From positions 1-48,261 of the IMG/VR virus record IMGVR_UViG_3300033068_001142: 48,261 nucleotides of DNA. One strand, 5' to 3'. Position numbers and translations under genes: made by a program. The DNA comes from a virus. Lineage: Duplodnaviria; Heunggongvirae; Uroviricota; Caudoviricetes. Below, one piece after another: positions 1 through 39,361 of this stretch (the first letter of the stretch is position 1; every line of letters starts with the position of its first letter). The notes under the pieces were generated by a model, which worked only from the letters and a program-made list of their open reading frames with translations, was not told the DNA's origin and made no database searches.

Positions 1-501
1 GATGTATTGTACGTGAAGGATAGTGGTAATGGTGCATTGACTAAGGTAGTTCCTACTGATAGTCAAGTTAAATTGCCAGTAGCTATTGTGATTAGTTCTC
101 ATGCGACTAATGGGACATTGTTTGTTAGAGTTAACAGTATTGATGAAAATCATGCTAAGGTAGAACTAGCTAGTAAAGTAGATAAGAATGCAGCTATTAC
201 TGGCGGTACTGCTACAAAGGTTACTTATGATGCTAAGGGGTTAGTTACTAGTGGTACTACGTTGGTAGCTAGTGATATACCTAGTTTGGATGTTAGTAAA
301 TTAACGACTGGTGTACTGCCTGTTGCTAGGGGAGGTACTGGGACTAGTACTTCTACTGGGTCAGGAAATGTAGTGTTGAGTGCTAGTCCCATATTTACAG
401 GAACGCCAGTTGCACCTACTGCTAGTGTTGGCACTAGTACAACACAAATAGCGACTACAGGGTATGTGGTTGCTGAGATAAATAAAATAGAGGAGTGGTA
501 A
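1..501 (+). CDS. Tail fibre protein, C-terminal part (reading frame open from base 1, so probably 5'-truncated by the window)
   Basis: Fibre-type repeats KVTYDAKGLVTSG, LPVARGGTG, SPIFTGTPVAPTA..TQIATTGYV; stop overlaps next start (TAATG at 499-503). Confidence 0.75.
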   Translation, partial: DVLYVKDSGNGALTKVVPTDSQVKLPVAIVISSHATNGTLFVRVNSIDENHAKVELASKVDKNAAITGGTATKVTYDAKGLVTSGTTLVASDIPSLDVSKLTTGVLPVARGGTGTSTSTGSGNVVLSASPIFTGTPVAPTASVGTSTTQIATTGYVVAEINKIEEW

Positions 502-3476
502 TGAGGATAAATAAACACGACACAAATGGAACAAAACCCTTACTAGGTAAGGGTGAGTTAGGGTATGATGACTACGCTGCAGGTGGTGATGTAGGTAGAG
601 TGTATGTTGGTACGGGAAGTGAGAATATAGCATTAGCAGAAAGGCTTGAGTCTAATATGATGACAAAAGCTCAATTTAATGCTTTAGCTGAAGAACGAAA
701 AGCTAATAGAGCGGGGAGTGGGTTTGATGAGTTTGGTAAGCACGCAGTTTCTACTAATAATTACCCTAACATAAATGAAGGTATGTTCGTTTCTGTTTTA
801 AATAATGCAATATACAACGGTAATATAAAACTCGGATACACCGGTGTAGATAATACAGGTGTGTCAAAAACAAATTATCCAATTACAAATGTTAATGGCG
901 TTAGACACAGAGTCGATAATGGTGGAGCATCTAATAATATAACACTACCCACAGCACCAAACATATACCCACACGATACAGTTCTAACAGCAGAACAAAT
1001 CAATAGTGGTGTAATAAAACACGCAGATGCTAGTAATAGTGGGTTGATTGTTAATGGTAAGTTTGATACGGACACGAGTGGGTGGAACAACCTATCAACT
1101 GGCACAGGTAGTATTTTGTATTCTGGCGGTAGAGTACTACTTTCTGGTGCGGATGGTTCTAACAGAGGTGCTATCTCTCAAGTGATACCCACTGTTATTG
1201 GTAAAAAATATACAGCAGAGCTTAACATAGAAATAGTTTCAGGTTCACTTAGTCTATTTGGTACATCAGTAGGCTCTGGTGGAGTAACCGCATCAAATGG
1301 TAGAAATACGTATGAATTTACAGCTATTAATGCTTCTACTACAATACTATTCTACACAAGCTCTGCTTCTGGCTCTGCATATATAGACAACATAGCAGTA
1401 TATCCAGCAGATGCAATATCAAGAAGTGATTTAGTATTCCTAGAATCTTGGCATGAAGATGTAAGTGAAAAGAACTTTGTATATCCATTAGGAAATGTAC
1501 AATATCTAGGTGCTAACACAGATGGTTTAACTGGAATTACTAATGGTAATTTTACTGGATTTGAAACTTACTCGTTGTTCGGTAATTGGCAATCACCAAG
1601 TTCACTAATTGGTAAAGGTTATGTATGGAGTTCATTATCAGAGGCTCAAAAGAAGGCGTTTATATCTAATCCTGATAATAATTGCTATTTAGATGGGGAT
1701 AAAGTTATTCAAGTTAGATATAGAATGAGGGTTATACAAGGTGCTAGGGATACTTGGGCTACTGTAGACCCTCAAATGCCGGGCTCGTTTGAAGCTATGA
1801 GTAGCGTACGACTAGAACTTGTTGTAGCCGCAAAAGGTAAAAGAACATCTATTAATGATTTAATCTCTAATGTGACCGGAAGTAACGACCATCAAGTTTT
1901 CTGGAATGATTCTAGTACTCTATCAGGTCTAATAAATAAGAGTACTGGGGCGTTTAGTATTCCCTATACAACTACTGGAATAGCTTACGAAGGTAAATGT
2001 TTTGCACTTCCAATCGCTCTTGCGCAAAAACGTAACCAGGGAATGTACCATAATGTATATAATCCAAATGGTACAAAAGTAGCTTCAGATGGATTAGATT
2101 GTTTTAAAACGGCAGTAAGTTTCACGAGCATTAGTGATTGTTTTGACTCAGCGAAATTATTAACAGCAAGTGGATATATTGGAAGTGCTAGTGGTAGACC
2201 AGACGGATTATTCTATGACCAAGTACACGAAAGTGATATTTTAGATTTAAGAAATAGTAGTAAGAAAGTAGAAGATTACAATAGGTTAATTGGTAGAGAG
2301 TTTAATAAACTTGTTGCTGGAACTACAAGAGGTAAAGAGGGTGAAAGTGATATTGTAATGATAAGAACTTTTACTAAGACAAGTACATTCGGGCAAGACA
2401 ATAATCGTTTTTATTTTGGAATATCATCTGCTATATATCCTCAACAATCATTTTCACTGACAGAAAGCAATAGCTATTATCTATTGGGGAGTAATGGAAG
2501 TGTTTACTCTGTAAACCAAATCATAAATCAAAGTGCAACGGGAACATTGTATGTACCTTTTGGGACAACACAAGTTTATGTCCCGATTGATGGTAAAAAT
2601 ACAGCAGGAACAATGAATACTTTGTTTCCAGACGGTACAACAATAACTGTAATTGTAGCAAAAAGAACTACTAGAACAAAGTCAAACACTTTGCTACATT
2701 GTGACATTATCGGTAATCCAACTAATTACCCAACAGCTTGGAAAGAAAGTGGAGTATTTGGAACACCTCTAATTGTTGCAGAAGACGGGACAAGTTTACT
2801 ACCGGATGGTGTGAGAGATACATTCAAGCTAAGTAGAAAAGCAAATGCTACACCTTTATTATGTTTAAGAAGTACAGATAATGGTGTAACTTGGACAAGT
2901 TTTACTCCAACATTTAGCACAACAACTAATGCAATAACTTTAACAGATGAACCTGCTAATAATTTGGTAATGGTTTATTATCAAACAAAAACAAGTATGG
3001 CTGTTCCAGTTGTTAATAGTGAAGTACTAGAAATAGGCGACGTATTTGCAACTAGTTATTCTTCTCGTAGCCCATTGGTTAGTTCTCTAATTGAAAAAGT
3101 ACCAACTTATCAAGCCGGTATAGCAGGTGTTGTTCCTACACAGATATTAGGAAAACCTACTAATTATATTTTTAATTACTTAAGTAAGATAGAGAACACA
3201 GATGGTTACAGAGACGTACCACAACATAAATCAACAACCTTAACTCCGGTAACAACACCATCTATTAAAGTATTCCCATACCTAACAAGATTAAATGGAA
3301 AAGCTTACTTGAATTTAGTGTTTAAAGAAATGAAACATAATGGTACTTCTTGGGGAGATTCAAATAAATTTGAAATTGTAGATAAAGTTTCTACTACTAC
3401 GGATAACAATGCACAAACAGTATTGATAGGGCAAAAAACAGTAGAGTTACCATATTTTATAGCAGGAGATGAATGA
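501..3476 (+). CDS. Large tail fibre/receptor-binding protein with a CBM-like domain
   Basis: About 991 aa from ATG 501 (TAATG overlap); Gly/Ser/Thr/Asn-rich; NGKFDTDTSGW carbohydrate-binding-like motif; followed by a chaperone-like gene. Confidence 0.7.
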   Translation: MRINKHDTNGTKPLLGKGELGYDDYAAGGDVGRVYVGTGSENIALAERLESNMMTKAQFNALAEERKANRAGSGFDEFGKHAVSTNNYPNINEGMFVSVLNNAIYNGNIKLGYTGVDNTGVSKTNYPITNVNGVRHRVDNGGASNNITLPTAPNIYPHDTVLTAEQINSGVIKHADASNSGLIVNGKFDTDTSGWNNLSTGTGSILYSGGRVLLSGADGSNRGAISQVIPTVIGKKYTAELNIEIVSGSLSLFGTSVGSGGVTASNGRNTYEFTAINASTTILFYTSSASGSAYIDNIAVYPADAISRSDLVFLESWHEDVSEKNFVYPLGNVQYLGANTDGLTGITNGNFTGFETYSLFGNWQSPSSLIGKGYVWSSLSEAQKKAFISNPDNNCYLDGDKVIQVRYRMRVIQGARDTWATVDPQMPGSFEAMSSVRLELVVAAKGKRTSINDLISNVTGSNDHQVFWNDSSTLSGLINKSTGAFSIPYTTTGIAYEGKCFALPIALAQKRNQGMYHNVYNPNGTKVASDGLDCFKTAVSFTSISDCFDSAKLLTASGYIGSASGRPDGLFYDQVHESDILDLRNSSKKVEDYNRLIGREFNKLVAGTTRGKEGESDIVMIRTFTKTSTFGQDNNRFYFGISSAIYPQQSFSLTESNSYYLLGSNGSVYSVNQIINQSATGTLYVPFGTTQVYVPIDGKNTAGTMNTLFPDGTTITVIVAKRTTRTKSNTLLHCDIIGNPTNYPTAWKESGVFGTPLIVAEDGTSLLPDGVRDTFKLSRKANATPLLCLRSTDNGVTWTSFTPTFSTTTNAITLTDEPANNLVMVYYQTKTSMAVPVVNSEVLEIGDVFATSYSSRSPLVSSLIEKVPTYQAGIAGVVPTQILGKPTNYIFNYLSKIENTDGYRDVPQHKSTTLTPVTTPSIKVFPYLTRLNGKAYLNLVFKEMKHNGTSWGDSNKFEIVDKVSTTTDNNAQTVLIGQKTVELPYFIAGDE

Positions 3477-26107: not shown

Positions 26108-29100
26108 ATGGCTGACATATATAAAGAACTACTTAACACAGCTGCGTTAATGGATACTGACCCTACACCAGCTGATACAATTGCATTAAAGGCAATGACG
26201 TTAGAACAAAATAAACAATCAAAATTAAAAGCCTTAGGTGGGCTAAATCAAGGAAGTAACTTGAGTGAGAGTTACAGTTTGACTCCGCAAGGAAACCTTG
26301 AGTATAATAAAAATAAAATATGGAATGATGCTACCTCTGCGGAAGTACAAGGAATGTTAGGTGAAGCTGCAAGTAAATACCAAATATATCAAGATAATGG
26401 TAAATGGTTTCAAGGAACTGGTACTGATAAGAAAGAGTATACTGGAAATTTCAGTGATACACAGAGAGCATATATGTACGGTACAAAGGAAGACCCAAAT
26501 GCCGTAAAGTTTGGACTAGCTAGAGGTGATCTACCAAGCTCAGATTACAGGTATCTACCAGAACAAGCTACAAAAGAGGGTTATAGTACTGGAAAACGAG
26601 GCTACGGATGGGATGCAGGTGAACAAGGTGTAGACTTAGATAAAAAGTACATGGATATGGTATTGCCTAAAGATGTGGCTATCGCATTAGAAGGAGCAAT
26701 ACATGGAAGAACAAAAGCACTAGAGAATAGGGTGTACCCTAACATGCTTAGTGATAAAGGTGAGATAGGATCTGGAGCAAGTGAGTACTATACAAGTGCA
26801 GAAGGTATGTTAGGAAATACACAAGGATTAACTGCACAGGAGTTAAGTGTAGGGCAAGGTAAACTAGGAGAATATAGAAAAATTGTCCCAGTTGATGAGT
26901 ATGTTAGGCCTGACCTTAGCGGTGCTACCGACCTTGAATCATATAGCAAGTCTGGGAGTAAGTTGTCTTACGAGGATTGGGCTAACAGAGGTGATCAAAG
27001 AGATTCGGATGGTATTGATGCTTTACAGGTAGGTGCTGCAAGATGGTGGGGTAAAACTCAAGAAGCTGCAGGAGAATTGCTGAAAAGCTTAGCTGAACAA
27101 GATAAAGAATTTCTGGGAAAAGAAGATGCTAGGCTTAAAGAAAAATACAACGAGAAGGTATCTGAGTTTAGGAAATCATTTAACGAGGGGATTAAAGAGG
27201 CTGGTGAGTATCTGACTAAAAGAGGAGAATTCGTTAAGGATAATGCTTCAGAATATTACGGTTACAACGATGCGGGAAGTAAGACAGCTAAAGCAGTATG
27301 GGGCGAACTGAAACAAGGGAATGTGGTTAAGGCACTAGAGAATGTAAGTACAGAAGGTGTACTTGGGTTAGTGGCTGAATCACTACCAGAAAGGGCTATG
27401 TACTATAGCCCAACTACGTTGTTAACATCGTACGCAGGAAATGTAGCAGAAGCTAAGAAAGAGGCTGAAAAGATTGCGGGTGGTGAGATAAGTACTGGAA
27501 GAATGTCAGCTATACTGATTGGGGAAGGGTTGAGCATTGCATTGGATAAAGCAGTGTTTGATGGAATTATCTCACCTGCAAAAGCTGGGGATGTGATTGA
27601 AAAAGCTGCGGAGAAGTTAGCAGGGACAGTACCAAATGTGTTGTTGAGTGCATCGGTTAAATATGCAACAGATAAAGTTACAAGAGTTGCAGGAGCAGTT
27701 GCAGCTGAAGGTACACAAGAGGTGTTACAAGAAGGGCAAAGAATTGCAACTACACAACTTGGACAAAAAGACGTACTGACAGAAGAGAACTTAGATAGAC
27801 TAGGGGAGTCGCTAGTTGGTGGTGGATTAGCAGGTGGAGCTATGAGAGGAGGAGTTGAGACAATATCAACTGCTGGTGATGTGTTGAGAGGACCTTCAAG
27901 TGAACTACAAGCTAAAAGACTAGAAGAGCTAAAAAGTAAAACTAAGGAAGAAGTAAAGAATAACATGGAGTCTAGCTTGGATATGACTGGGTCAGTTGAG
28001 TTAGGTGAAGCAGATAGAGAAGTTGAAAGCACACTCGGAGTGGATTCAGTTAGCAGAATGTACAATGATTCAAGTAACGTAGATGAGATGTTAGCTAAGA
28101 TGAATGAAGCTAAGAAACAAATCTTGGCAGATGTGTATGAGTATGATGAAGCTACAGATAAATTTACAGGAGTGAAGGATGTTAGCAAGCTTGACAAGGT
28201 AGAAAAATGGTTTGAAGACTATGGGACTTTCCAAGCAGATGTGACAGGTAAAATACCTGAGAATATTCAAGATGAGATTGACCATATAAAGAAAGCCAAT
28301 CAAACATTTAAGACAGCTGAGACTGTCGGGGAAAGTGTTACGGGTATGGTTAAAGATAAGTTAGGGACTATGGAAGGACTTAGCGAAGAAGAGAAGATAA
28401 GTAATATAAATAAGCAAATCGATGATGTGATTAATACGTATAAGTTTGACGAAAAAGTACCTGGAGCTAAGGCAGCAATAACAAGAAAAGTTATGCAAGC
28501 ATATGAGCTATCAGGAATGGCAGGACTAGGAAATGGGATTAACCTTGAGATAGATAAAGATGTGTTAGAGAGTCAAGTTAAAGAAACGGCAGGAATTAAA
28601 GCTGGAACAACTGGACAAAGACTTACAAGTAGAGACGGAAAAGTAGTTGAAGTTGGAAGTGTAGCGAATGAAGAGTTGATGGGTATGTTGAGTGGAGAAG
28701 GTACAAGCTTCCCAGCAGATCACCCAAATACAAAATTCAGAAATACAGTGGTTAAGAAATTAGACCCACAAGAAGCGTTTAACGTTACAAGTGCATTGAC
28801 TGAAGTTGGAAGTAAAATGAATGAAGCTGCGGATAGAAATATCGGAGAAGCTGGAAGATACTTCAAAGGAGGGGATGTAAAGGGTAACATGGTTAGACTT
28901 ATGACTGTGGTAGCTAACGCAATTAACAGTCAAGTTGAGTCAGATACAGACTTAAGGTCGAATACAACTGGAAGTGATAGCTCATTAAGGTCTGGAGAGT
29001 ATTGGGCAGGATTGAACAATGTGTTGGAGCAAGCAGGTAAAGATTACGCAAGTACATATGGGTTAAGATTGACTGGAAAAGATAAGGTTGCATTAGCTAA

Positions 29101-32100
29101 AGCACATAGAGATTTAGGGAGGTTTGGAGTTAAACTGTTAGAAGATGCAGGTATGGTTGAGATTACGAATGACAACATGTGGTCGATAGCAGGTGAGACT
29201 GTAGGAGCTGACGGTAGGCAAATATCAACGCTGAATACGAAAGGTGTAAGAGTATCAAAAGGTAAAGATACACTAACAGATGAAAATGTGACATTGGTTA
29301 TGGATAAAGGTATCAGACTGGTTGACAGTATCAAAGAAGTAGGTGCAAGACCTGACAATGAGCCAGTGAGTAGGTATGGAGATGCGATTAAGAGAGTAGC
29401 TAAAGTGATGTTACCTAATGCAAATAGGGTGCCAGCGACTGAGTATGTTGACAGCAACATCAAACACGATGAAGATATAGAGATTGATGAGATTACAACT
29501 GAAATATTGAAAAGAAAAATGAAGACTCCATTTAAAATGAAAGGTGGAGTATTTGGAAAAGTGTTAGAGTATATAAGAGGTATAAACGATAAGGATGAGT
29601 TAAGAGCTGAGATTAAAAAGTCGGCAGAATTAAGAAGATTCCTTGGGCTAGAGGAAAGTGGGAGTGAGCTGTTGAAAGTGAATGACAAGGGAAGTACGAT
29701 GAGCAAGTTTGACAACTTGGTTGGAATACTGGATAACTTGGATACACTTAGCAATCCAGAAGGTGTATATTACACATTCCAAGTGGATATAAATGACAGA
29801 TTTACGGTTAGAGAAACAATAGCGAATTACCAAAGTGACAAAGTATATGCAAGAGCACTGATGGCAATTGGTGCATATAGAACTAAGACTAAAGAAGGTA
29901 AAGATATATTGGTATACAGCTTAGCTGATGAGTTAAAGTCTAAAGATGATAAAGAAATGAGCGATTTAGAAGCTGTGCTAAAATATGCAGATATATATAA
30001 ACAGATTGAAGAATTAGCGAATGGAGACACTAGAAATCTGATTGAGATTATAGCAAATACAGCTAAAGAAGGAAAAGCTTTAGCACACTTAAAAGGATTA
30101 GGGGGAATTAGAATCTTGAGTTTACTTGAGGGAGCTAAGGACATACAAAAAGCTATGAAACCAGATGGAACGTTAGGAGATGTGGTTACAGAGTATATAC
30201 CAGAGAAAGATGCAAGTGCGTCTGGAGTATTTAACGTTACGATGAATATCGCAGGTAGAAATAAAGAGTTTTCGAAACAAAGGTTGATGGAGCTTGGAGT
30301 TACATTTGGTGATGAAGGAGCTAAAGAGACGAGAGATGCGTATAAGATATTGGGTGACTTGATTAAGAAGATGTTAGATAAGACTGTTGAGGTTGATGAG
30401 AGTATCGGATTACCAAAAGGTGGTGAAGATCTGATTGCGGTAAGAAGAATAAACGATGCATTAGCTGATGACAAGTTGATGAGACAACTGGCTAAATATC
30501 CGATTATGACTTGGTTTTACTCAGCAAGAGAGAAATCGATTAAAGAGAACTTGACTAGCGAGATGACGCAAGTATTGGTGGAAAGAGCGTTAGAAGGTGA
30601 CACTGGGGTGTTGAAGTACCTGTCGGATGTAATGGGTAGAGAAATTACAGCAGATAACGTTAAGTATATCAAGAAGGGTGACAAAGACCACAAAGCACTG
30701 AGAAAAGAATTGAATAAGATTGGTAGTGTATATTACAGCTACCTACAAGAAGCGTTTCCAGAGGTACAAGAGACTAAAGATGAAATGGCTGAATACTTTG
30801 AGTTTCTGACTAAGAACAGTGTGATTGACGGTAAGGATTACTGGGAAGGTAGAGTAAGAACTGGGCTTGGAGCTGTGCATGGTACGAATACAACAATGAG
30901 TCTATATAAGTGGAAAAATCAAGCAATTGATATGAGTGAGCAAGAAAAGATAGATAGAGGATTAGCTACAAAAGATGAAGCTGCATCACTGATTACAGTT
31001 AGAAATAGAATGCCAAATGAGACATCACTGATGGCACTGTTAGCTCACAATGCGGATGCTGCAGAAGCAGCGGCAATGTTGGATGGAGTAAGTGACGGTG
31101 TTGCAGTACAGTCGAAACATGATGGATTTAGCAGTAGCCCAGATGAGTTGATTAAAGGTCAAAAGAAGGCTGAAAAAGCTGCGAAAGAAGTGGCGTTGAA
31201 GTATGACTTCATCGAGGAAATGGCATGGACTATGGAACAAACAGCGAATAGAATGGAAGAGGCATTAGCAGATGCAACGCCTGAAGTTAAGAAAAAGCTG
31301 GAAGTAGCGATGAAGAAGTTAGATGACAAAGTAGCAGCGATAAGAGAAAAGAATAAGCCGAGACTAGAAGCTAAAGCTGAATTGCTGAAAGATGCTGAAA
31401 CAAGCCTGTTTGGAAAAGAAGGGTATGTGAAGCAAGAAGAAGAAGTTGCGGTTGAGGAAGAAGTAAAAACACCAGAAGCTGTGAAAGAAGAAGCAGTTGA
31501 AAAGGTATATGAGAATATATTGGATGTGATTACAGATATGGATACAGCAGATGAGAGAAAAGTAGATATCTTAGCTAACAAAGACAATGTGAAGATTGTG
31601 ACTGTGAATGCGGAAGTTGAGGCGATGTTACGTAAAAAAGGTAACAAAAGTATCAATGAGTTTCTGAAAAATGGTGGATCGTTTACGTATAACGGGACGG
31701 TGTATATCGGTAAGAAACTGATGAAAGGTATCGATGAGGTTAGTGGTAAGAGAGTTACGGCTGAGCAGATACTGGATACGGTAGCACATGAAATTGAACA
31801 TGCAGTAGCAGATAAGTATATAAGCAAAGAGCATAAGGGTGAGATTAAAGCTGAGTATGATAAGATTGTGAGTATATTAGAGAAAGCGAGTATGAGTGAG
31901 AGGGTGCCAAGAATGTCTCCAAGGGCTAGAAGCAGAATGGAGTATGTGATTGACATGACGTTAGCTGGGAATAAGATGCAAGCAGTGAAAGAGCTTGTGG
32001 CAATGGGTAGAGAGGATACAGTGTTTGCTGAAGTTATGGAGAATCTGAATAAGATGGCTGGAATACAAGGAAACTTTGTGGAAAGAGTGATTAAGAAGAT

Positions 32101-32476
32101 TTGGAATAAGGTTCAGGAGCTGATGGCTAAGACTCCAGTTAAGGAATTGCTGAAAAATACGGATGTGTATAGCTTAGGAATTGCAATAAGAAGTATACAA
32201 GATAAGGCTAGAGGTATTGAAAATAAAGGAATTGGTAAGGCAAATGCTGGTACAATTGCAGATAAATATCCAAACCCGTTTGATGAAGATTTCGTGAGTG
32301 GGTTAATGGAAAATAAAGTAGAGTCTAAGCAAGAAGAAGCTATACTACAAAAAGAAGATAGTGCTTTAATCGATGAAGCAGTAACTACTATTAATAAGCT
32401 TATAGATAATGGTTCTGGAAAAGCTTATAAAAAGTTATTAGAAGCAATAATAAAAGATATAGAAGGATGTAAATAA
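26108..32476 (+). CDS. Virion-encapsidated single-subunit RNA polymerase, N-terminal plus catalytic part (N4 gp50-like), with zincin HExxH
   Basis: DINDRF..NYQSDK (DxRGR/NPQ-like, about aa 1226), motif A EKDASASG (about 1368), motif B RQLAKYPIMTWFY (R-x3-K-x7-Y, about 1459), motif C KHDGF (about 1672), TVAHEIEH..VKELVAM. Confidence 0.88.
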   Translation: MADIYKELLNTAALMDTDPTPADTIALKAMTLEQNKQSKLKALGGLNQGSNLSESYSLTPQGNLEYNKNKIWNDATSAEVQGMLGEAASKYQIYQDNGKWFQGTGTDKKEYTGNFSDTQRAYMYGTKEDPNAVKFGLARGDLPSSDYRYLPEQATKEGYSTGKRGYGWDAGEQGVDLDKKYMDMVLPKDVAIALEGAIHGRTKALENRVYPNMLSDKGEIGSGASEYYTSAEGMLGNTQGLTAQELSVGQGKLGEYRKIVPVDEYVRPDLSGATDLESYSKSGSKLSYEDWANRGDQRDSDGIDALQVGAARWWGKTQEAAGELLKSLAEQDKEFLGKEDARLKEKYNEKVSEFRKSFNEGIKEAGEYLTKRGEFVKDNASEYYGYNDAGSKTAKAVWGELKQGNVVKALENVSTEGVLGLVAESLPERAMYYSPTTLLTSYAGNVAEAKKEAEKIAGGEISTGRMSAILIGEGLSIALDKAVFDGIISPAKAGDVIEKAAEKLAGTVPNVLLSASVKYATDKVTRVAGAVAAEGTQEVLQEGQRIATTQLGQKDVLTEENLDRLGESLVGGGLAGGAMRGGVETISTAGDVLRGPSSELQAKRLEELKSKTKEEVKNNMESSLDMTGSVELGEADREVESTLGVDSVSRMYNDSSNVDEMLAKMNEAKKQILADVYEYDEATDKFTGVKDVSKLDKVEKWFEDYGTFQADVTGKIPENIQDEIDHIKKANQTFKTAETVGESVTGMVKDKLGTMEGLSEEEKISNINKQIDDVINTYKFDEKVPGAKAAITRKVMQAYELSGMAGLGNGINLEIDKDVLESQVKETAGIKAGTTGQRLTSRDGKVVEVGSVANEELMGMLSGEGTSFPADHPNTKFRNTVVKKLDPQEAFNVTSALTEVGSKMNEAADRNIGEAGRYFKGGDVKGNMVRLMTVVANAINSQVESDTDLRSNTTGSDSSLRSGEYWAGLNNVLEQAGKDYASTYGLRLTGKDKVALAKAHRDLGRFGVKLLEDAGMVEITNDNMWSIAGETVGADGRQISTLNTKGVRVSKGKDTLTDENVTLVMDKGIRLVDSIKEVGARPDNEPVSRYGDAIKRVAKVMLPNANRVPATEYVDSNIKHDEDIEIDEITTEILKRKMKTPFKMKGGVFGKVLEYIRGINDKDELRAEIKKSAELRRFLGLEESGSELLKVNDKGSTMSKFDNLVGILDNLDTLSNPEGVYYTFQVDINDRFTVRETIANYQSDKVYARALMAIGAYRTKTKEGKDILVYSLADELKSKDDKEMSDLEAVLKYADIYKQIEELANGDTRNLIEIIANTAKEGKALAHLKGLGGIRILSLLEGAKDIQKAMKPDGTLGDVVTEYIPEKDASASGVFNVTMNIAGRNKEFSKQRLMELGVTFGDEGAKETRDAYKILGDLIKKMLDKTVEVDESIGLPKGGEDLIAVRRINDALADDKLMRQLAKYPIMTWFYSAREKSIKENLTSEMTQVLVERALEGDTGVLKYLSDVMGREITADNVKYIKKGDKDHKALRKELNKIGSVYYSYLQEAFPEVQETKDEMAEYFEFLTKNSVIDGKDYWEGRVRTGLGAVHGTNTTMSLYKWKNQAIDMSEQEKIDRGLATKDEAASLITVRNRMPNETSLMALLAHNADAAEAAAMLDGVSDGVAVQSKHDGFSSSPDELIKGQKKAEKAAKEVALKYDFIEEMAWTMEQTANRMEEALADATPEVKKKLEVAMKKLDDKVAAIREKNKPRLEAKAELLKDAETSLFGKEGYVKQEEEVAVEEEVKTPEAVKEEAVEKVYENILDVITDMDTADERKVDILANKDNVKIVTVNAEVEAMLRKKGNKSINEFLKNGGSFTYNGTVYIGKKLMKGIDEVSGKRVTAEQILDTVAHEIEHAVADKYISKEHKGEIKAEYDKIVSILEKASMSERVPRMSPRARSRMEYVIDMTLAGNKMQAVKELVAMGREDTVFAEVMENLNKMAGIQGNFVERVIKKIWNKVQELMAKTPVKELLKNTDVYSLGIAIRSIQDKARGIENKGIGKANAGTIADKYPNPFDEDFVSGLMENKVESKQEEAILQKEDSALIDEAVTTINKLIDNGSGKAYKKLLEAIIKDIEGCK

Positions 32477-35400
32477 TGAAGTGTAAAATAGGTGAAGCAA
32501 TAGAAAAAATAGAGAATCTTATTGATAAACCAGCTATTAAAAACTCTGCTGATACTCTAGCAGAACTAGAAAGAGTTAAGAGATTCCTTAACTCAGCTAG
32601 GGAGATAAAAATGTCTAAAATACAAAGTAGCACATCTCCAGAATTTATTGAGTTTCAAAAAGAAAATAATAATGAGTATGATTCTGAACTTGATACAAGT
32701 ATAGCTAATAAGTTAAAATCTATATACAAAGACATAGAAGTAATTTACTTGAGTGGTCAGAATGAAATGAGAGCTGTACTAGAAGAGCTTGGTGGAGATA
32801 TAGCTTTATTTCAGCTATCTAAAAAAAGAAAAGAGGAATTTGAGAAGAAGTTAAGAAAAGCTAGGCCAGAATTAGATAATACTAGTTTAGATAAAATACT
32901 TAGTAGTATTGAAGAGTTTAGCGAGACTGAAGCAAATGGTAATGAAAAGTTGATGAAAAAACTAGAGTTATTGGCTCTACATTGGACAATCAAAGGTAAC
33001 GTGATTCTTCCTGAAGACAGTGAAAAGGTCATGTCAGCTTTAAAAATAGCAGATAAAAATAAATTTGATCCATTTAACTATGATAGCCCAAATGATATAA
33101 ATAATGCATTTAGTCCTATAAGTGAAAAAGAATCTACTATAGATCCAGACACTTTTCTTAATAAAGGTTTTAGCAATAAACGTGAAATAGGTAATGGAGT
33201 AGTTACCTATGACGTTGCTAATACTGAAACTGGAAGAGAATCTTCTAGAAAAATAATGGATAGTCACTATGATACTAACTTTAATCCTTGGTGTTTATTG
33301 TTTAGGGATAGCTATGGTCTCACAGAAAATAGTAGTAAAATGTGGTATGAGCAATACCCTGGAAATAAAAAGATAGCTTTTAAAGATGGTAAATTGATCT
33401 CGTTTTATGGTGGTGATAAGTGGTGGGATATCCACGATGCTCCTCATAAAGGAATACCTATCATAAATAGAGGAAAATTTATAGAAGGGGAAAATAGGGT
33501 TAGAGAGTCTTCTATTGTCGATGAAAATGATGCTAATAAAGTTATAGCTGTAAATGGTTATGAACTAGGTGTTAATAAACCTGGAAATGAGTATAAAAAA
33601 TGGGATAAAGATAAAAATCTTTTATTACATATTACAAAAGATGGTACAAAAATAGCAACAGATTTTGATGGTAAAATCTCTACATTGTATCCTGATGGTT
33701 CTGGTATTATAGTATTTTCTAACGGTAAGATCCATAAAAAAGTTTTAAAGGACGGTTCTTTCACAACTTGGAATGAAGATGGTAATGTAATAGCTGAGTA
33801 CAAAGTTGAAAAAGGCTATACTAAATGGTTTAGTAATGGTACTATAAAAGAGACTGGTGATTCCCCATACTCTGATAATAACGTAAAAATATATTATGAA
33901 GATGGTTCCTTATATGAGGAAAAAATAGATTATACCACTTATAAGAGATATGATAAAAAAGGTTTTTTAGTTGATGTTTCGTATCCAAATAAATATAGAT
34001 TGAATGGATTGGACTATTTGGGGAGTGTATCCTATAACTCAGAAAATACTGAAAAAACTATTATTGTGGATTATTCTGAAAGAAAGTTTGATAAGTATAT
34101 TCAAAAAACAGTTGTTAGTAAAGATGGTACAATAAAAATATATAAAAAAAATTCTGATGATAAAGTAGATGAAATAATATACCCTGATGGCAGTGCAGAG
34201 ATGTATGACACTAGAGGAAGAATAATTCAAACTATTAGTAAAGACGGTGAAATTGAAGTTAAAAAATATGGTATTCTTGATAATATTAAAAGTTTTATTG
34301 GTTTTCAAAAAACGGATGATATAATAAAAGGGGCTGCTGTAATTAATAAGAAAAAAATACTTATTGATATTGAAAATAGATCTACAGATACATTAGCTCA
34401 TGAGTATGCACATTTTTATATAGCTGCATTCAGAGATACACCGATAGTTCAAGAAGCTATAAAGAAATGGGGTAATGAAGAAGCTTTAGTACAGGCTATT
34501 GGGGAGCAGGTAGTTAAGCAAAAAGGTGAAGTTTATAACTGGTGGAAACAGTTTAGTAAATGGATAAAAGACTTATTTGGTAGCCTAAATAAAGCCACTA
34601 AGGAAGAACTTGTTCAATTATTAACTGATGCGTTTTTAACAAATAGAGATATTAGTGCTGAGACTAAGATGAACGATGACGGAAGTATCACAGTAGCGAC
34701 ATTGGACGGTGTATATACGTTTGAGAATGGAAGTGAAAATAGCAGAAATACGTACAAAGGTAAGAGTGTTAGCATGCCGATTATGAAAGACATTGAGATG
34801 CAAGCTAGCGCTGAACTGAGTGGATTTACAGTTCCGTTTAACGTGTTATCGAGTCAAGCGAATAAGTGGGCAAGTGACTACCTAGTGGTTGGACTATCAG
34901 AAAAAGCTGGAGGTGTGTTAAAGCCATTGGTGATGAAAGCACATGCAAAAGCTAAGCAGAAGAACAGTATGTATAGAAAGACTGTGAATTTGATAGCAGA
35001 AGGGTATAGGGATTCAGAATTGCTGGCTAAGATAAGAGTGATGTTGAAAGTAACTGGAGATATCGATGACAAAAAATTAGCAGAAGTGATGACAGTGGCA
35101 TATAACAACGCTAGAATGACTAAAGAGGTGTTGGATACGAAATTGCCTGAATTGGATAAGTGGATAAAAAGAGAGTTGAGAGATGCTAAAGATAGGAAGA
35201 ATCTGAATGACATATTTGGAAGAAGTGGATTTATGCATTTGATGGACAATCCAGATGTGATTGGAGCACTGTACAGTGGAGAGACAGATGTAGATAAGCT
35301 GATAGCGAAGATACCTGCAAGTAAGTTACAGATGGAAGAAGCTGAAGCACTAAAAGAATATCTGATAGAAGGTAAAGTTAGCAATACTGGAAGAACAAAC

Positions 35401-37587
35401 GGAAATGGAAGTAAGACGGTAGAACAACTTGCAGCTCTGTTAGCTTTGAAGGATGAAGGACGTATGGATACGTTAGTTAAACTAAGAAGTAAGCATTTGG
35501 ATCTGTATGAAGAGATGCTGATGTTAAGTGGGATGGTTAAGAGCTTGCATGAAGTGGTGTATAGCGGAAGAAGAAACGCTGTAGGAACTGGAAGTGGAAG
35601 AGTATATACAGGGTATGACAGTCACGGAATGATGGATGTATATGAAGGAACTCACGAGTATAAATATGTGACTAAAGAAGAGCTGAATGGGGTGTTGAAG
35701 GATCCAAGATGGAAAGTGATTAGAACACCAGAGAAAGATGTGATTGGGATTGTAGCGAGAGAGAGTTTGAATAGCTACCAAGAAGGTATCGGATTAGACA
35801 AAGATGTGATTAGAAATGGGATTGCATTGGACAAGGATTTCGTGGAAAGTAACGTGTTAGGAAAAGGTGCAGAATGGTTAGCTAAGAATAACATCGTGTC
35901 AGATACAGATAACGGATATACGAGATATAGGGTGGTGCTAACAGCTGAAGAAAGAAGTGCGAATGGGTATATGGATAACGTTGCACATACGCTGTACAGA
36001 ACATGGGTACATAACGCACAAGTAGTGGAAATGCAAACGGTACAAGGAATTGTGACTGAAAGTATGACAGCACAAGGTGAGACTGGATTAAAGGATATGG
36101 AAGCTACGATAAAAAGAAATAACATGGTTGATGCAGATAGAAGGAGAGAGGTTAAACCGTTTCTGGATATGGAGATTAGCTATGAAGAAATGAAAGAGAA
36201 ATATCCGGAAGTATATAAGAGGTATACACCTGTGAAAAATATAAGCAACTATGCCGATATGAGAAGAAAAGTTACATATGTAAGAAAAGATATGGAAGAT
36301 ATATTGATTGGGTATAGTACTGGAAGTATATTCAAGGATGATAGCACGTTTGGAGTTGGATTACAGAGAATAGAGACAGTGTATAAGCAGTTGGTTCAGA
36401 TGTTGAAGTTGAAATTGGTGGTTGCAAATCCAGCTAAGTTAGCGATGGATACATTGAGTAACACAACGTTGCTGATGTCGATGGATGTAGGAATTGACGA
36501 GATTGCAAAAGGATTCCCAAAAGCACTGAAGTATGCAAATGAGATGAGTGGGATTGAGAGTAGGTTAGTGGTTGCGAAGATTGGATTAGCAAGAGCAGAA
36601 GCTACAGGAAAAGATACAAGAAAAGCTAAAGCAGAAGTTGAAGCAGTGATGAAAGAAATGGAAAGACATCCGTTTTACCCAGCGATTAAGAATGGATTTA
36701 TCCAGTCACAGGGTACAAGCATGTTGGTAAAAGAATATGACACGATTTCAGGGCTACAGAAGACGATTGACGATGTGGTTAAGATGGTTGTGGCAGATGA
36801 GAAAGGAAATCCAAATAAAATGCATGCTGCATTGGTGTGGATGATGAATGCAGGATTTGGGATAGATGATATATTGAATAGCGTTAGCAATATGAGTAAA
36901 GTTAAAGGAACAACATTTGGAGAAGAACTTGAAGGAATTGCAAAAAGACTAGAAGAGAAGAAAGGGAAGGATGTAATCCGAGCAGAAGAGAAGAGACTTG
37001 GAAGAAAACTGACAGAAGATGAAATTAGGGAGATTGAAAAGGATGCCGACACAGTAAGATATGTTAGCGAATTCATTGCAGCACCTAGTTCCGAGTTGGT
37101 TAGACAAGGGTCACGTGTGATGCAAATGGCAGATATAATGTCTAGATGGACGATGTATACGCATGAGATGAGTAAAGGATTGAAAGAGATTGGGTATACA
37201 TATGAGAATGAGTATAAGGCGCAACAGGATATCAAAGCAGGTAAGCTGGACAAAGCTAAGTACGATAAGATAGAATCTGATGCAGCGATTAAGGCACTGG
37301 ATACGTTTATAGATTATAGGATGAATATGCCTAGAGAGGTTAAGATGTTGAGTGATTTAGGAGTGCTGATGTTTCCAGCGTTCTGGATACGAGCACAGAA
37401 AGTGATATATAACTTAGCTAAGTACCATCCAGTGAATGCAGGGGCAGGGCTACTGCTTACAGATATGTTAGGGTTGAATGGTGCATCGATTGTGGATGCT
37501 AACTTTGTGAATAAGATGATGAATGGGACATTGGTACAAGGGGGACAGAATGTCTTAGACCCTGGTACTGTCATCCTCGGATTGTAG
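32476..37587 (+). CDS. vRNAP C-terminal-region homolog as a separate gene, with a polyvalent-type insert (zincin, PWCL domain, MORN-like repeats)
   Basis: C-terminal LKLVVANPAKL..LSN, QMADIMSRW.MY.H and FIDY..MLSDLGV.MF..FWIR..V resemble the recalled N4 gp50 C-terminus; TLAHEYAH..EEALV. Confidence 0.7.
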   Translation: MKCKIGEAIEKIENLIDKPAIKNSADTLAELERVKRFLNSAREIKMSKIQSSTSPEFIEFQKENNNEYDSELDTSIANKLKSIYKDIEVIYLSGQNEMRAVLEELGGDIALFQLSKKRKEEFEKKLRKARPELDNTSLDKILSSIEEFSETEANGNEKLMKKLELLALHWTIKGNVILPEDSEKVMSALKIADKNKFDPFNYDSPNDINNAFSPISEKESTIDPDTFLNKGFSNKREIGNGVVTYDVANTETGRESSRKIMDSHYDTNFNPWCLLFRDSYGLTENSSKMWYEQYPGNKKIAFKDGKLISFYGGDKWWDIHDAPHKGIPIINRGKFIEGENRVRESSIVDENDANKVIAVNGYELGVNKPGNEYKKWDKDKNLLLHITKDGTKIATDFDGKISTLYPDGSGIIVFSNGKIHKKVLKDGSFTTWNEDGNVIAEYKVEKGYTKWFSNGTIKETGDSPYSDNNVKIYYEDGSLYEEKIDYTTYKRYDKKGFLVDVSYPNKYRLNGLDYLGSVSYNSENTEKTIIVDYSERKFDKYIQKTVVSKDGTIKIYKKNSDDKVDEIIYPDGSAEMYDTRGRIIQTISKDGEIEVKKYGILDNIKSFIGFQKTDDIIKGAAVINKKKILIDIENRSTDTLAHEYAHFYIAAFRDTPIVQEAIKKWGNEEALVQAIGEQVVKQKGEVYNWWKQFSKWIKDLFGSLNKATKEELVQLLTDAFLTNRDISAETKMNDDGSITVATLDGVYTFENGSENSRNTYKGKSVSMPIMKDIEMQASAELSGFTVPFNVLSSQANKWASDYLVVGLSEKAGGVLKPLVMKAHAKAKQKNSMYRKTVNLIAEGYRDSELLAKIRVMLKVTGDIDDKKLAEVMTVAYNNARMTKEVLDTKLPELDKWIKRELRDAKDRKNLNDIFGRSGFMHLMDNPDVIGALYSGETDVDKLIAKIPASKLQMEEAEALKEYLIEGKVSNTGRTNGNGSKTVEQLAALLALKDEGRMDTLVKLRSKHLDLYEEMLMLSGMVKSLHEVVYSGRRNAVGTGSGRVYTGYDSHGMMDVYEGTHEYKYVTKEELNGVLKDPRWKVIRTPEKDVIGIVARESLNSYQEGIGLDKDVIRNGIALDKDFVESNVLGKGAEWLAKNNIVSDTDNGYTRYRVVLTAEERSANGYMDNVAHTLYRTWVHNAQVVEMQTVQGIVTESMTAQGETGLKDMEATIKRNNMVDADRRREVKPFLDMEISYEEMKEKYPEVYKRYTPVKNISNYADMRRKVTYVRKDMEDILIGYSTGSIFKDDSTFGVGLQRIETVYKQLVQMLKLKLVVANPAKLAMDTLSNTTLLMSMDVGIDEIAKGFPKALKYANEMSGIESRLVVAKIGLARAEATGKDTRKAKAEVEAVMKEMERHPFYPAIKNGFIQSQGTSMLVKEYDTISGLQKTIDDVVKMVVADEKGNPNKMHAALVWMMNAGFGIDDILNSVSNMSKVKGTTFGEELEGIAKRLEEKKGKDVIRAEEKRLGRKLTEDEIREIEKDADTVRYVSEFIAAPSSELVRQGSRVMQMADIMSRWTMYTHEMSKGLKEIGYTYENEYKAQQDIKAGKLDKAKYDKIESDAAIKALDTFIDYRMNMPREVKMLSDLGVLMFPAFWIRAQKVIYNLAKYHPVNAGAGLLLTDMLGLNGASIVDANFVNKMMNGTLVQGGQNVLDPGTVILGL

Positions 37588-37710
37588 GGTTTGAGTTACG
37601 TGGTAAATCACGTAACCAACTAAGGCGATTACAAGTACCCAAAAAGATACATATGCTACCACTAAGATTAACAAGATTGTTACAGTATGTAAAAGTGCTT
37701 TAAAATTCAT
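37555..37710 (-). CDS. Small membrane protein, 51 aa, not in the ORF track; overlaps the 3' end of the 1703-aa gene
   Basis: Read by hand: MNFKALLHTVTILLILVVAYVSFWVLVIALVGYVIYHVTQTLQSEDDSTRV; ATGA overlap with the upstream gene. Confidence 0.65.
   Translation of the reverse strand: MNFKALLHTVTILLILVVAYVSFWVLVIALVGYVIYHVTQTLQSEDDSTRV
37591..37619. terminator. Hairpin at the convergence of the two transcription blocks
   Basis: TTG-A-GTTACGTG GTAAAT CACGTAAC-CAA; no clear U-tract. Confidence 0.4.
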
Positions 37711-37928
37711 ATGTTAAACTTTGGTGGTGAAAAGTATAAGAATAGGGAAACTAAGGCTGAGGTAATAGTTCCAACTACTAGTGCGCCGTATGAGCCACTA
37801 AATAGTAACATTACAATAACTAGGAGGAATAGGTCGAGGGATGCGTCAGCGTATCTAGCTCGATCAAACTTCCATTTAATGAAAGCGATATTGAAAAAAG
37901 TTACAATACCTATAATTAAAAATTCCAT
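37707..37928 (-). CDS. Small multi-TM membrane protein, 73 aa; likely true start at 37928
   Basis: AAAGGAG RBS before MEFLIIGIV; hydrophobic helices. Confidence 0.7.
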   Translation of the reverse strand: MEFLIIGIVTFFNIAFIKWKFDRARYADASLDLFLLVIVMLLFSGSYGALVVGTITSALVSLFLYFSPPKFNI

Positions 37929-37953
37929 AAAAACTCCTTTAGTAAGTATATTA

Positions 37954-37973
37954 GAACACTCCGAAGAGTGCTC
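37954..37973 (-). promoter_or_regulatory. cUUCGg tetraloop hairpin (terminator or mRNA stabiliser)
   Basis: Minus strand GAGCACTC-TTCG-GAGTGTTC, intergenic. Confidence 0.65.
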
Positions 37974-37981
37974 CGATATGC

Positions 37982-38212
37982 TTATTTGTCTACTACAGTT
38001 AGACCGATAAATGATAGTACTATAGTAAGTACTCCTCCAAAAAACAGCTTTAACCAAAGTGAGAAAGCTGACCAACATGCTACGGAAAATAAAGTCCCAA
38101 CAGCTCCCCATAAATACAGTCCATAACCAACACTAGTTACTGTTGATAGTACCATAGTTACAGCTGATACATAAATTAGTACCATAAATAATAATGCTAG
38201 GATTCGTTTCAT
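37982..38212 (-). CDS. Small membrane protein
   Basis: 76 aa, almost fully hydrophobic; ATGA overlap. Confidence 0.65.
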   Translation of the reverse strand: MKRILALLFMVLIYVSAVTMVLSTVTSVGYGLYLWGAVGTLFSVACWSAFSLWLKLFFGGVLTIVLSFIGLTVVDK

Positions 38213-38664
38213 TTGATAACTCTTTCGTTAAGAATTTGTTGTAGTTCGTGTTCTGGTCCTACAAAATTAGCAGGTTTTGTTAGTTTTCCATGCTCATCTT
38301 TAGGCATTGACAGTTTTTGTAAGTTGGCTTTAGTAACTACTGAGATTGCTCTTTGGATTTGTTCTACGTTTAAACCTAATTTTGCTATAGAGCCGACTGC
38401 AAAGACAATTGCATCAATTGCTTTGTCGAGTCTGTCTACGTCAGTTATTTCAAAATCAACTTCGGAATCTCTTTGCATCCAAGACACAATTGCTCTAGAA
38501 GTGTTTTTAGGTCCATCAAATGATAAAGTCAAATTCCTTGCTGGTGGTTTAAAACCTTCAAGTGCTTCCTCGATTTGGAAAGACGACTCAAGAAAATCGT
38601 CATAACCCTTCTCTAACAAACCTGCTTGCTTGTTGAAGTCGTAAATTTCAGTTACAAAGTTCAT
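38209..38664 (-). CDS. MazG-like / PRA-PH-type NTP pyrophosphohydrolase
   Basis: DFN....IEEALE..D.LDKAIDAIVFAVG..V.KANLQK..GKL.KP. Confidence 0.75.
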   Translation of the reverse strand: MNFVTEIYDFNKQAGLLEKGYDDFLESSFQIEEALEGFKPPARNLTLSFDGPKNTSRAIVSWMQRDSEVDFEITDVDRLDKAIDAIVFAVGSIAKLGLNVEQIQRAISVVTKANLQKLSMPKDEHGKLTKPANFVGPEHELQQILNERVIK

Positions 38665-38667
38665 CTG

Positions 38668-39018
38668 TTACCTCATTGGTATAAATAGTTTTGCTATGGT
38701 TCCAACTAGTGACCATAGTTCATTTTTTGCATTGTTTAAAGCTACTGTTTTACCAATTGATGCAACGTCATTTGTAACGTCAAGTACTTGAGCTTTACCA
38801 AGTACTTCGTGCCCTGTTGGCAAAGTTATTACACAAACTCTCATGTTGTCAGTCAGGTGGTAGTGTGTTACCTCTGAGGTATCTAACAAGTTGTATATGA
38901 AGTTTGGACTAATCTTGTTGTTGTTAGTTTTTAATTCATTTTCAATAGAGGCAATTAAGGTATATGCTGGTGACGACGGTTGTTGTGGCATAAAGTCATA
39001 AATGGTTGTTTGTTTCAT
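38668..39018 (-). CDS. N4 gp49 / Sf6 gp66 family protein
   Basis: VCVITLPTGHEVLGKA....IGKTVALNNA.NELWSLVG. Confidence 0.75.
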   Translation of the reverse strand: MKQTTIYDFMPQQPSSPAYTLIASIENELKTNNNKISPNFIYNLLDTSEVTHYHLTDNMRVCVITLPTGHEVLGKAQVLDVTNDVASIGKTVALNNAKNELWSLVGTIAKLFIPMR

Positions 39019-39046
39019 TCTTGTCCTTTTATTGTTACGGGTTTAT

Positions 39047-39116
39047 GTATGTGCTTCTACTACACACCGTAAGGTGTAGTGACCGGTGGGGAAAGGTCCG
39101 GATATCCCACACATAC
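39047..39116 (-). ncRNA. Candidate structured RNA (closing stem, hairpin, pseudoknot)
   Basis: GTATGTG/CACATAC closing stem; ACTAC-ACC/GGT-GTAGT hairpin; interlocked GTGGG/CCCAC and GACC/GGTC; GC-rich relative to flanks. Confidence 0.4.
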
Positions 39117-39361
39117 TACGAATTGCTTAACATATCTTGAGATAAAATATCCCAAAACCTATTTTCAATAGCAGCTACCATTTTGGAATACTCTAATGGG
39201 TATAGTTTTTGGTAATCTGTTGAAGTTATTTCAATACCAATGTTACTATCATACATAATGTAACTACCGTCTTCAGTAGGATAGGTAGGACCACCATTAG
39301 CGTACTTTTTATAAATCCTAGCAAGTACCCCCTGCTGTTTTTTAGTGAACATATAACCCAT
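39116..39361 (-). CDS. Hypothetical protein
   Basis: 81-aa ORF in the operon; start uncertain. Confidence 0.6.
   Translation of the reverse strand: MGYMFTKKQQGVLARIYKKYANGGPTYPTEDGSYIMYDSNIGIEITSTDYQKLYPLEYSKMVAAIENRFWDILSQDMLSNS

Follow-up and report, generated by a model that had tools for sequence, protein, structure and literature searches.

The window analysed here, a stretch of 48,261 nucleotides (nt), is the first 48 kb of the 205-kb virus record IMGVR_UViG_3300033068_001142 (Caudoviricetes). Judged from its genes, it carries the virion RNA polymerase (vRNAP) locus of an N4-type phage, made up of several open reading frames (ORFs), and into this locus a discrete cassette at ~32319-34644 has been recently acquired; both its architecture and its transfer are near-certain. 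The cassette encodes a zincin metallopeptidase (MPTase) that is split by an insert nested in the loop between strands beta1 and beta2, and it is likewise near-certain that the two pieces are one domain. The insert has two parts, namely a domain marked by a Pro-Trp-Cys motif and a beta-hairpin repeat array. The best explanation of the whole, which seems moderately probable, is an acquired cassette that would be delivered with the polymerase, would bind a target through its array and would be cut by its own zincin at Gln-containing linkers. A preliminary description, made from the letters of the sequence, had noticed an AT-rich block here and read it as a variable effector slot on the polymerase ejection machinery; the observation is confirmed, while the interpretation as a whole is partly supported.

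A transferred cassette at the ORF junction

Two long ORFs on the + strand, 26108..32476 (2122 amino acids (aa), ORF A) and 32476..37587 (1703 aa), overlap by a single base, which the ATG of the second shares with the TAA of the first. The region around their junction stands out by its composition. The GC content is 0.27-0.33 across ~32200-34600 and 0.36-0.43 on either side. For the block 32319-34644 it is 0.299, whereas the vRNAP sequence on its two sides has 0.394 and 0.397; GC at third codon positions is 0.19 against 0.31 and 0.38. Among windows of the same size in the 205-kb genome, the block is in the lowest 0.8% for GC. The only other equally AT-rich region of that genome is outside the window, at ~190900-193000 (GC 0.289-0.299 in 2.3-kb windows), and may be another foreign block.

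That the block is foreign, as had been proposed, follows from its absence in the nearest relatives and its presence, at 93% nt identity, in a distant vRNAP phage. In three relatives without the cassette (L005, L011 and L012), the match to the window breaks off at 32314-32318 and resumes at 34639-34645. For instance, L011 has 97% nt identity over 24769-32252 and 34639-39367 and contains 251 nt in place of 32315-34638; the same replacement, of 251-253 nt, is observed in L005 (94%) and L012 (88-89% nt identity). In these relatives, A ends in Asp-Pro-Ile-Cys-stop and is followed by a separate C ORF of 1052 or 1057 aa, the first ~77-83 residues of which are absent from the window. The 90%-identity cluster of this C ORF has 35 members; those listed are mostly 1052 or 1057 aa long, each on up to 15 contigs, and the only fused allele of 1703 aa among them is the window's own. 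By contrast, L002 carries window positions 32309-34476 and 34476-34666 at 93-95% nt identity, whereas its A and C ORFs are at most ~30% identical to those of the window or unmatched. From the extent of this match, the shared block begins 52 codons before the end of A, crosses the stop/start junction and reaches codon 723-730 of the next ORF. At the protein level, residues 2064-2122 of P0002 share 83-90% identity with the tails of L002_A and L006_A; elsewhere these proteins are at most ~30% identical or unmatched. It is thus near-certain that the cassette displaced the native A/C junction and supplied a new A tail, a new stop/start junction and a middle module fused to C. The block had been described as inserted into the injected protein; this holds for the nested zincin insert but is incomplete, as the last 52 upstream codons and the stop/start junction also came with it.

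Both junctions lie inside short stretches that the three sequence types have in common (GAAAATA at the left junction, TTAGTGC..ACTA at the right), with a microhomology of only 7-15 nt. Their position in such stretches points to microhomology-guided recombination rather than a site-specific element. A mobile intein or homing-endonuclease element was considered and set aside as unlikely, both because of this short microhomology and because no Pfam or PHROG family for intein Hint motifs, HNH, LAGLIDADG or GIY-YIG was found in aa 1-760 at E<=0.1-1. The GC content of the cassette is nearer to that of L002 and L004 (~0.33-0.35) and, together with its absence from the closest relatives, this indicates that the window's lineage was the recipient. 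A blastn search of the AT-rich block against 50,697 phage genomes gave no match. A second indel is found just upstream of the cassette site, where L011 7549-7903 corresponds to window 32253-32259; it adds ~355 nt to the A tail of L011, the ORF A of which is 2190 aa long against 2122 aa in the window. The end of A therefore seems to be a recurrent site of change.

Comparison of the window and L002 copies gives a ratio of nonsynonymous to synonymous substitution rates (dN/dS) of 0.24 overall, which indicates that the cassette is under constraint. By region, the ratio is 0.11 in the Pro-Trp-Cys domain, 0.20 in the zincin core, 0.21 in the N-terminal zincin piece (N-piece) and 0.31 in the repeats; in the head of the 1703-aa ORF (aa 1-64), there are 11 nonsynonymous differences and one synonymous difference, which are small counts. 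The reading frame runs unbroken through 2.3 kb and is kept at both recombination junctions.

A zincin split by a nested insert

The cassette zincin is a gluzincin-type metallopeptidase, and a polyvalent-protein unit is built on it. As had been noticed beforehand, it is split by about 500 aa. The N-piece (aa 65-95, with a linker to Gln113) and the core (aa 608/612-730) are ~500-520 aa apart, and the insert between them lies at 32815-34296. The core contains the motif HEYAH (aa 642-646, nt 34399-34413) and a downstream helix bearing a Glu (aa 668-677), a combination that places it among the zincin-like MPTases. It is 55-77% identical to more than 60 polyvalent proteins, some of which have ART-PolyVal, NADAR or helicase domains. 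The two His and the Glu of HExxH, as well as a Gly-x-Glu-Glu...Gly-Glu motif (aa 666-677), do not vary in 53 sequences. Pfam has no model specific to the clade: MPTase-PolyVal gave no match at E<=1, and SprT-like reached 12.8 bits, under its cut-off of 25.6. Likewise, neither the head nor the N-piece had a match above threshold in Pfam, PHROGs, NCBIfam or PADLOC, and a profile of the zincin core found nothing in the PDB by sequence.

The two pieces are regarded as one domain because unsplit relatives, profile tests, pair prediction and fold alignments across both pieces all bear on the point. A profile of aa 69-116, made from five cassette relatives, matches a conserved motif, [FY]-D-x-E-L...L-Y-P-E-I-K-L, in most proteins that bear the core, and this motif is always upstream of it. 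In six unsplit members (P0039, P0033, P0051, P0061, P0062 and P0063), the motif directly abuts the core, and in other members it is 200-900 aa upstream. When a profile was made from the unsplit members alone, its match to the window protein fell into two segments, aa 65-95 and aa 593/608-728. In addition, when 41 N-pieces of non-cassette members were combined into a profile, the best match within the 1703-aa protein was at aa 69-84, with a score equalled by 5 of 2000 shuffles (p ~0.0025).

Structure prediction points in the same direction. When aa 60-116 and aa 600-740 were predicted as a pair, the score was 0.66, against 0.04 for the best of three controls; of 80 solved complexes, 58 reach the mark used, as do 2 of 110 mismatched pairs. 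Contact agreement between runs was at least 94%, and the predicted local distance difference test score (pLDDT) of the partner was at least 72. In the predicted pair, aa 86-95 form a strand paired with aa 625-637, and the helix rests against the HExxH helix. Zincin folds are present in the PDB and this pass may partly be memory of the fold; what the prediction shows is the likeness of the modelled assembly to a zincin. An AlphaFold2 (AF2) model of aa 60-760 has a mean pLDDT of 82, with 88-91 for the helix at 70-83 and the strand at 88-92 of the N-piece. DSSP assigns to it these two elements, strands at 608-613, 616-622 and 627-631 and helices at 639-651 and 656-665, so that the model displays the core fold of zincins, that is, an N-terminal helix, a three-stranded sheet and two C-terminal helices. 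VIA-align matched this model to PprI (8sln; Z 6.8, root-mean-square deviation (rmsd) 3.4 Å, 87 residues aligned, model range 12..623), lethal factor (1yqy; Z 6.7, 4.1 Å, 116 residues, 2..624), PPEP-2 (6fpc; Z 5.4, 3.6 Å, 105 residues, 9..624) and PPEP-3 (9g0j; Z 5.4, 3.8 Å, 107 residues, 8..624), and each match spans both the N-piece and the core.

The contrary reading, that the zincin is not split and aa 65-113 are a chance look-alike belonging to a linker or to the Pro-Trp-Cys domain, could draw on the low scores of the N-piece (4-6 bits from profiles of other members), but it is largely refuted and has next to no probability left, given that the Pro-Trp-Cys domain starts at ~aa 110 in hundreds of proteins without the N-piece, that the N-piece abuts the core in unsplit members, and that the pair prediction and fold alignments include it.

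A variable slot between conserved linkers

The same loop is used throughout the clade, since 46 of 50 classifiable members are split there, with inserts of 204-880 aa; the sample is biased in that it was drawn from a search of proteins of 936-2981 aa only. The inserts form eight sequence clusters (23, 12, 3, 2, 2, 2, 1 and 1 members), and that of P0019 contains ART-PolyVal. With at least eight insert types, the split site looks like a plug-in slot for injected proteins, as the variable effector slot of the preliminary description would have it. The content of the slot varies among relatives, the block differs in composition from its flanks, and the zincin halves are predicted to fold together.

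Both ends of the slot are marked by a hydrophobic-Gln motif. On the N side, such a motif (FNQ, MNQ, LFQ or LYQ) ends the linker in 45 of 46 split members; on the C side, another (LLQ, FQ or YNQ) lies 6-9 residues before beta2 in all 46. Unsplit members have neither, and the background chance of the motif per window is 0.27-0.34. In the model, the linkers are low-confidence, non-regular stretches, with a pLDDT below 50 at aa 108-112 and of ~63 at aa 608-611. This fits linkers that would be exposed and recognised by something, most simply the protease itself.

A second insertion site is also used. In L002 (10187-10710; P0003 aa 668-842) and L009 (P0006), a 175-aa insert with a Walker-A-like Ser-Gly-Thr-Gly-Lys-Ser lies exactly between aa 667 and 668, that is, between the HExxH helix and the Glu helix. 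It is identical in these two otherwise different middle ORFs and had no match in Pfam, PHROG, NCBIfam, PADLOC or the PDB.

The two parts of the insert

The first part of the insert, the Pro-Trp-Cys ("NPWCL") domain, is found in 453 representative clusters of the protein library at E<=0.001 and in 340 at 1e-10. Its carriers are mostly proteins of 1,000-7,000 aa, some with 2-4 copies of it, and nearly all of these carriers are without this zincin. In 132 aligned copies, Trp272 and Cys273 are invariant, and Pro179, Glu180, Asp181, Lys184, Asp198, Arg258, His264 and Pro271 are at least 90% conserved. The AF2 model of the domain is confident (pLDDT 91). No Pfam, PHROG, NCBIfam or PADLOC model matches it, and a sequence-profile search of the PDB was empty. 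Comparison of folds domain by domain, which had been suggested as a check, gave background for this domain (best E 0.31 by Foldseek against the PDB; best Z 5.3 by wide VIA-align, on helical fragments) and only an uncharacterised homologue in BFVD; for the repeat array, it was more productive, with Foldseek matches to OspA and Rhs.

The neighbours of the Pro-Trp-Cys domain tie it to the polyvalent proteins. Among 100 occurrences beyond the cassette group, the 330 aa that follow the domain include MORN_2 in 48, Tcp10_C in 6 and LRR_5 in 4, and the 330 aa before it include ART-PolyVal in 18, LPD23 in 10, LPD3 in 6 and LPD1 in 3; the domain also adjoins MuF_C. Both it and the zincin core are therefore shared with the ART-PolyVal/LPD proteins, and the 1703-aa ORF itself has a polyvalent architecture, in which the zincin, the Pro-Trp-Cys domain and the repeat array are combined with a vRNAP C-terminal domain.

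The second part, the single-layer repeat array, is the most variable part among the cassette relatives and differs among P0003-P0006. In the window copy, Tcp10_C (E=2e-8) and MORN_2 (E=0.009) are both below the Pfam cut-offs, while at the homologous position in relatives MORN_2 passes in 48 of 100 (best E 2e-47). The G-box of CPAP (4bxp) matches the model of the array at Z 11.1, with 160 residues aligned. Of the content announced for the insert, the NPWCL domain and the beta-hairpin repeats are there; the MORN assignment of the window copy is sub-threshold. A two-part unit of Pro-Trp-Cys domain and repeats recurs in hundreds of polyvalent proteins, and the insert is, by sequence, this standard unit: a domain that possibly depends on Cys and His, combined with a protein-binding array.

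The polymerase locus and its junctions

The coordinates of the features are collected in Table 1. Membership of the N4-type vRNAPs is indicated by homology of the C-terminal domain. The 3′ end of the 1703-aa ORF matches the virion RNA polymerase family phrog_2206 (E=1e-19 to 4e-20, profile positions 3272-3383 of 3406). The closest annotated phages are Alteromonas N4-like ones: in tblastn, the whole ORF matches only two of these, distantly, through its C-domain and their "RNA polymerase" (24% identity, E=1e-41 to 6e-47), besides a faecal phage contig, which it matches through the zincin. Upstream, ORF A has an HEIEH zincin of its own near its C-terminus; hhalign gives a probability of 11.5% over the HExxH region for its relation to the cassette zincin, and at the sequence level the two are not detectably of the same clade. 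The block is then within a virion-RNAP gene series and covalently fused to its C-terminal domain, in agreement with the placement of the slot on the vRNAP machinery.

Table 1. Coordinates of the cassette, its parts and the adjoining polymerase sequences in the window
Feature	Position	Strand	Remarks
Native upstream vRNAP ORF (A)	26108..32318	+	Polymerase and own HEIEH zincin, not detectably of the cassette clade; matches cassette-free L011 at 97% nt identity
Whole transferred cassette, 2326 nt	32319..34644	+	Left edge 32309-32319, right edge 34644-34666, by relative compared
Cassette-borne tail of upstream vRNAP ORF, last 52 codons	32319..32476	+	Ends Gly-Cys-Lys-stop; P0002 compared with L002_A/L006_A tails
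Head of 1703-aa ORF, aa 1-64	32476..32667	+	Begins Met-Lys-Cys-Lys; co-varies with upstream tail among relatives
Zincin N-piece, aa 65-95	32668..32760	+	N-terminal helix and strand beta1; profile matches, model, pair prediction
N-side linker	32761..32814	+	Ends Ala-Leu-Phe-Gln (aa 110-113), first hydrophobic-Gln motif; candidate cleavage site or hinge
Pro-Trp-Cys domain, 218 aa, aa 114-331	32815..33468	+	Helical bundle and alpha/beta subdomain (AF2)
Beta-hairpin repeat array, aa 332-607	33469..34296	+	Like MORN_2, TCP10 G-box and Rhs repeats
C-side linker, Ile-Gly-Phe-Gln (aa 608-611)	34297..34308	+	Second hydrophobic-Gln motif
Zincin core, aa 612-730	34309..34665	+	Strands beta2 and beta3, HEYAH helix, Glu helix
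Native C-terminal vRNAP domain	34666..37587	+	In-frame fusion to cassette; 96.7% identity to P0066 residues 84-1057; phrog_2206

A series of A, middle and C ORFs is observed in L002, L004, L006, L007 and L009, where the homologous module stands alone as a middle ORF (773-1657 aa), preceded by an A ORF of 2300-2500 aa and followed by a C ORF of 1316-1670 aa. The content of the middle ORF differs by lineage: in L007 (P0004, 10001-12991), a NADAR domain (E=5e-12) is added upstream of the nested zincin and, in L004 (P0005, 1098-4463), ~450 further uncharacterised residues are found downstream of it. The window differs from these five lineages in that the end of the module is joined in frame to C. 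In P0033 (2576 aa), an unsplit zincin of the same clade stands directly before a homologous C domain.

Every internal junction of these series has a Cys 1-5 residues from the upstream C-terminus (GCK, GCR, ENC, KGC, CSKG, CLK, ECKE, GCNK, ECE, CEG or PIC) and another 2-5 residues from the downstream start (MKC, MAC, MGC, MAEC, MSKC, MGAC or MANRC). The junctions covered are those at window 32467-32484 and L002 8177-8195 and 11060-11095, together with those of L004, L005, L006, L007, L009, L011 and L012. The outer ends of the series have no terminal Cys, and A and the 1703-aa ORF have in total three Cys in 3,825 residues, one of them Cys273. Tails and heads vary together in sequence, and the cassette brings a pair of its own. 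The pattern in these sequences suggests matched docking ends with a disulfide or metal link, and the cassette-borne A tail may serve for docking, as the counterpart of the next ORF's head.

At window 32468-32487 (TGTAAATAATGAAGTGTAAA), TGTAAA stands on either side of the overlapping TAA/ATG, which resembles the take-off and landing codons of a ribosomal hop. Translational hopping across the junction is rejected as a general explanation, as L002 has Arg-stop instead of Lys-stop and other junctions share only the cysteines; the duplication of TGTAAA is probably a by-product of the Cys-Lys motifs.

Farther downstream, the PhoH/PIN gene at window 39371-40750 (459 aa) is called in L012 (88% identity; 12959-15315) as pieces of 193 and 255 aa, with a NUMOD4/HNH_3 homing-endonuclease gene between them.

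Proposed mechanism and alternative explanations

In the favoured explanation, the module, being covalently attached to the vRNAP C-terminal domain, would be packaged together with the polymerase and reach the host with it by ejection in the first moments of infection. Fusion to the C domain, together with the requirement in N4 of a region encompassing the MPTase for encapsidation (PMC5512222), makes such delivery likely, by analogy. The repeat array may then bind a protein of the host or of a rival element, on which the Pro-Trp-Cys domain would act, possibly through its conserved Cys and His. The zincin, with its catalytic residues intact, might cut both flexible hydrophobic-Gln linkers and free the cargo, while the two protease pieces would stay together. 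Self-excision and the nature of the target are guesses; for autoproteolytic release, the guess draws on the intact catalytic residues and the hydrophobic-Gln motifs in low-confidence linkers. A wider version, in which the clade as such is a self-excising cargo holder, seems rather unlikely; in it, cuts in the linkers after ejection would free an effector and leave the halves non-covalently assembled, and its own tail and head would allow the cassette to plug into unrelated vRNAPs.

Several points weigh against this explanation. The phage and every relative compared are uncultured metagenomic contigs. The zincin fold is matched at Z 5.2-6.8, in the "middling" range of the tool, and MORN_2 (PF07661) in aa 330-610 of the window copy scores 16.6 bits, under the gathering threshold of 29.6. 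The Gln flanks could have a structural role or descend from a single ancestral zincin that was already split, and the members of the family are not independent samples. With no recognisable enzyme fold, a catalytic role of Cys273 and His264 is speculation. Finally, the N4 vRNAP is packaged unprocessed, so vRNAP MPTases need not self-cleave (PMC5512222).

This last observation also speaks for the main alternative, which is that the insert is not released but is a substrate-recruiting exosite that aims the zincin at a host protein, so that swaps would retarget the protease. The insert does sit in a loop of the protease's own sheet and has protein-binding repeats, the catalytic residues of the zincin are invariant, and MORN_2 or LRR follows the Pro-Trp-Cys domain in more than half of its occurrences. 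Nevertheless, some inserts are themselves enzymes, as with the ART-PolyVal of P0019, the unit of Pro-Trp-Cys and MORN occurs in hundreds of proteins without such a zincin, and both linkers are predicted to be flexible and keep the Gln motif. A recruiting exosite is considered fairly improbable.

Less probable still is that the module has a structural or ejection function in the virion, as an internal-protein extension of the vRNAP without effector activity towards the host, the zincin serving only for maturation within the capsid. It would agree with the presence of the module within the vRNAP ORF series of six lineages, with a weak fold match in BFVD to a "structural protein" of PA5oct (E=3.6e-3, template-modelling (TM) score 0.37) and with the single-layer beta-sheets, like those of tail and needle proteins, among the fold matches. 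By contrast, the nearest relatives, at 97% identity, do without the module, and the same domains are found in polyvalent proteins beside ART, nuclease and NADAR domains.

A neutral or selfish hitchhiker, spreading by recombination between co-infecting phages, is very improbable: its presence in only one of the listed close-relative alleles, the short microhomology and a composition that is not adjusted to the host genome would suit it, but the dN/dS values given above, in particular that of the cargo domain, and the frame kept intact through both junctions do not.

Comparison with known systems

Polyvalent proteins are presumed to be the earliest proteins put into a new host, and metallopeptidases are ubiquitous among them. 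A zincin clade with an effector unit in one loop, as in the 46 of 50 sampled members, gives candidate cleavage sites after Gln113 and Gln611. The analysis also defines a widespread domain, with an invariant Pro-Trp-Cys motif, that travels with MORN_2 and often follows ADP-ribosyltransferases. Phage genomes that are 97% identical and differ by the cassette are a natural plus/minus pair, and cargo of injected proteins moves as an in-frame cassette between very different phages. In the literature searched, the documented pair with its transfer between lineages, ORF junction included, appears to be new, as do the nested beta1-beta2 slot with conserved linkers, the Pro-Trp-Cys domain as a separate and very widespread unit and the organisation of a vRNAP as a multi-ORF locus with a variable middle ORF.

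Inteins offer a working analogy, as they are also self-contained in-frame elements within a host protein, and the insert might likewise remove itself at the protein level. Here, however, no intein or homing motifs were found, no ligation is expected, and the host domain is a protease with the guest as its cargo. Lethal factor, PPEP and PprI (1yqy, 6fpc, 9g0j and 8sln) share with the cassette zincin the N-terminal helix, the three-stranded sheet and the HExxH helix at Z 5.4-6.8, and lethal factor is the structure that links the N4 MPTase to zincins by HHpred (PMC5512222). These Z values are modest, sequence similarity is not detectable, and none of these proteins has a 500-aa domain nested in its sheet.

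For the repeat array, the comparison is with YwqK and with the CPAP/TCP10 G-box, which are also beta-hairpin repeat arrays for protein binding, the G-box being matched at the Z of 11.1 given above. The immunity protein YwqK is made of MORN_2 arrays, and this make-up is the rationale, by analogy, for the antitoxin-like role that had been proposed, besides defence inhibition, as a possible one for the insert; searches of PADLOC, Pfam, PHROGs, NCBIfam and the PDB with the Pro-Trp-Cys domain gave nothing that bears on either role. YwqK binds and neutralises the YwqJ deaminase toxin (10.64898/2026.09.29.755374). In the window, by contrast, MORN_2 is sub-threshold, and the repeats are the C-terminal half of a two-part unit inside a protease.

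The closest comparison is with polyvalent N4-type vRNAPs, where MPTases and swappable conflict domains borne by a vRNAP are an already known theme (PMC5512222). Fusion to an MPTase is a constant feature of N4-type RNAPs, for which release by autoproteolysis has been proposed (PMC5512222). The locus in the window resembles that class in its giant vRNAP, one or more HExxH metallopeptidases and variable conflict domains, and in the domains that it shares with ART-PolyVal, LPD3, LPD23, MuF_C and NADAR proteins. For that class, proposals include delivery with the DNA and autoproteolysis. It differs in that its Pro-Trp-Cys domain matches no Pfam LPD model and its vRNAP consists of two or three ORFs instead of one polypeptide. 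In addition, variable inserts of the MPTase have been described only between the two C-terminal helices (PMC5512222), whereas here whole effector units are held in the beta1-beta2 loop, between hydrophobic-Gln linkers.

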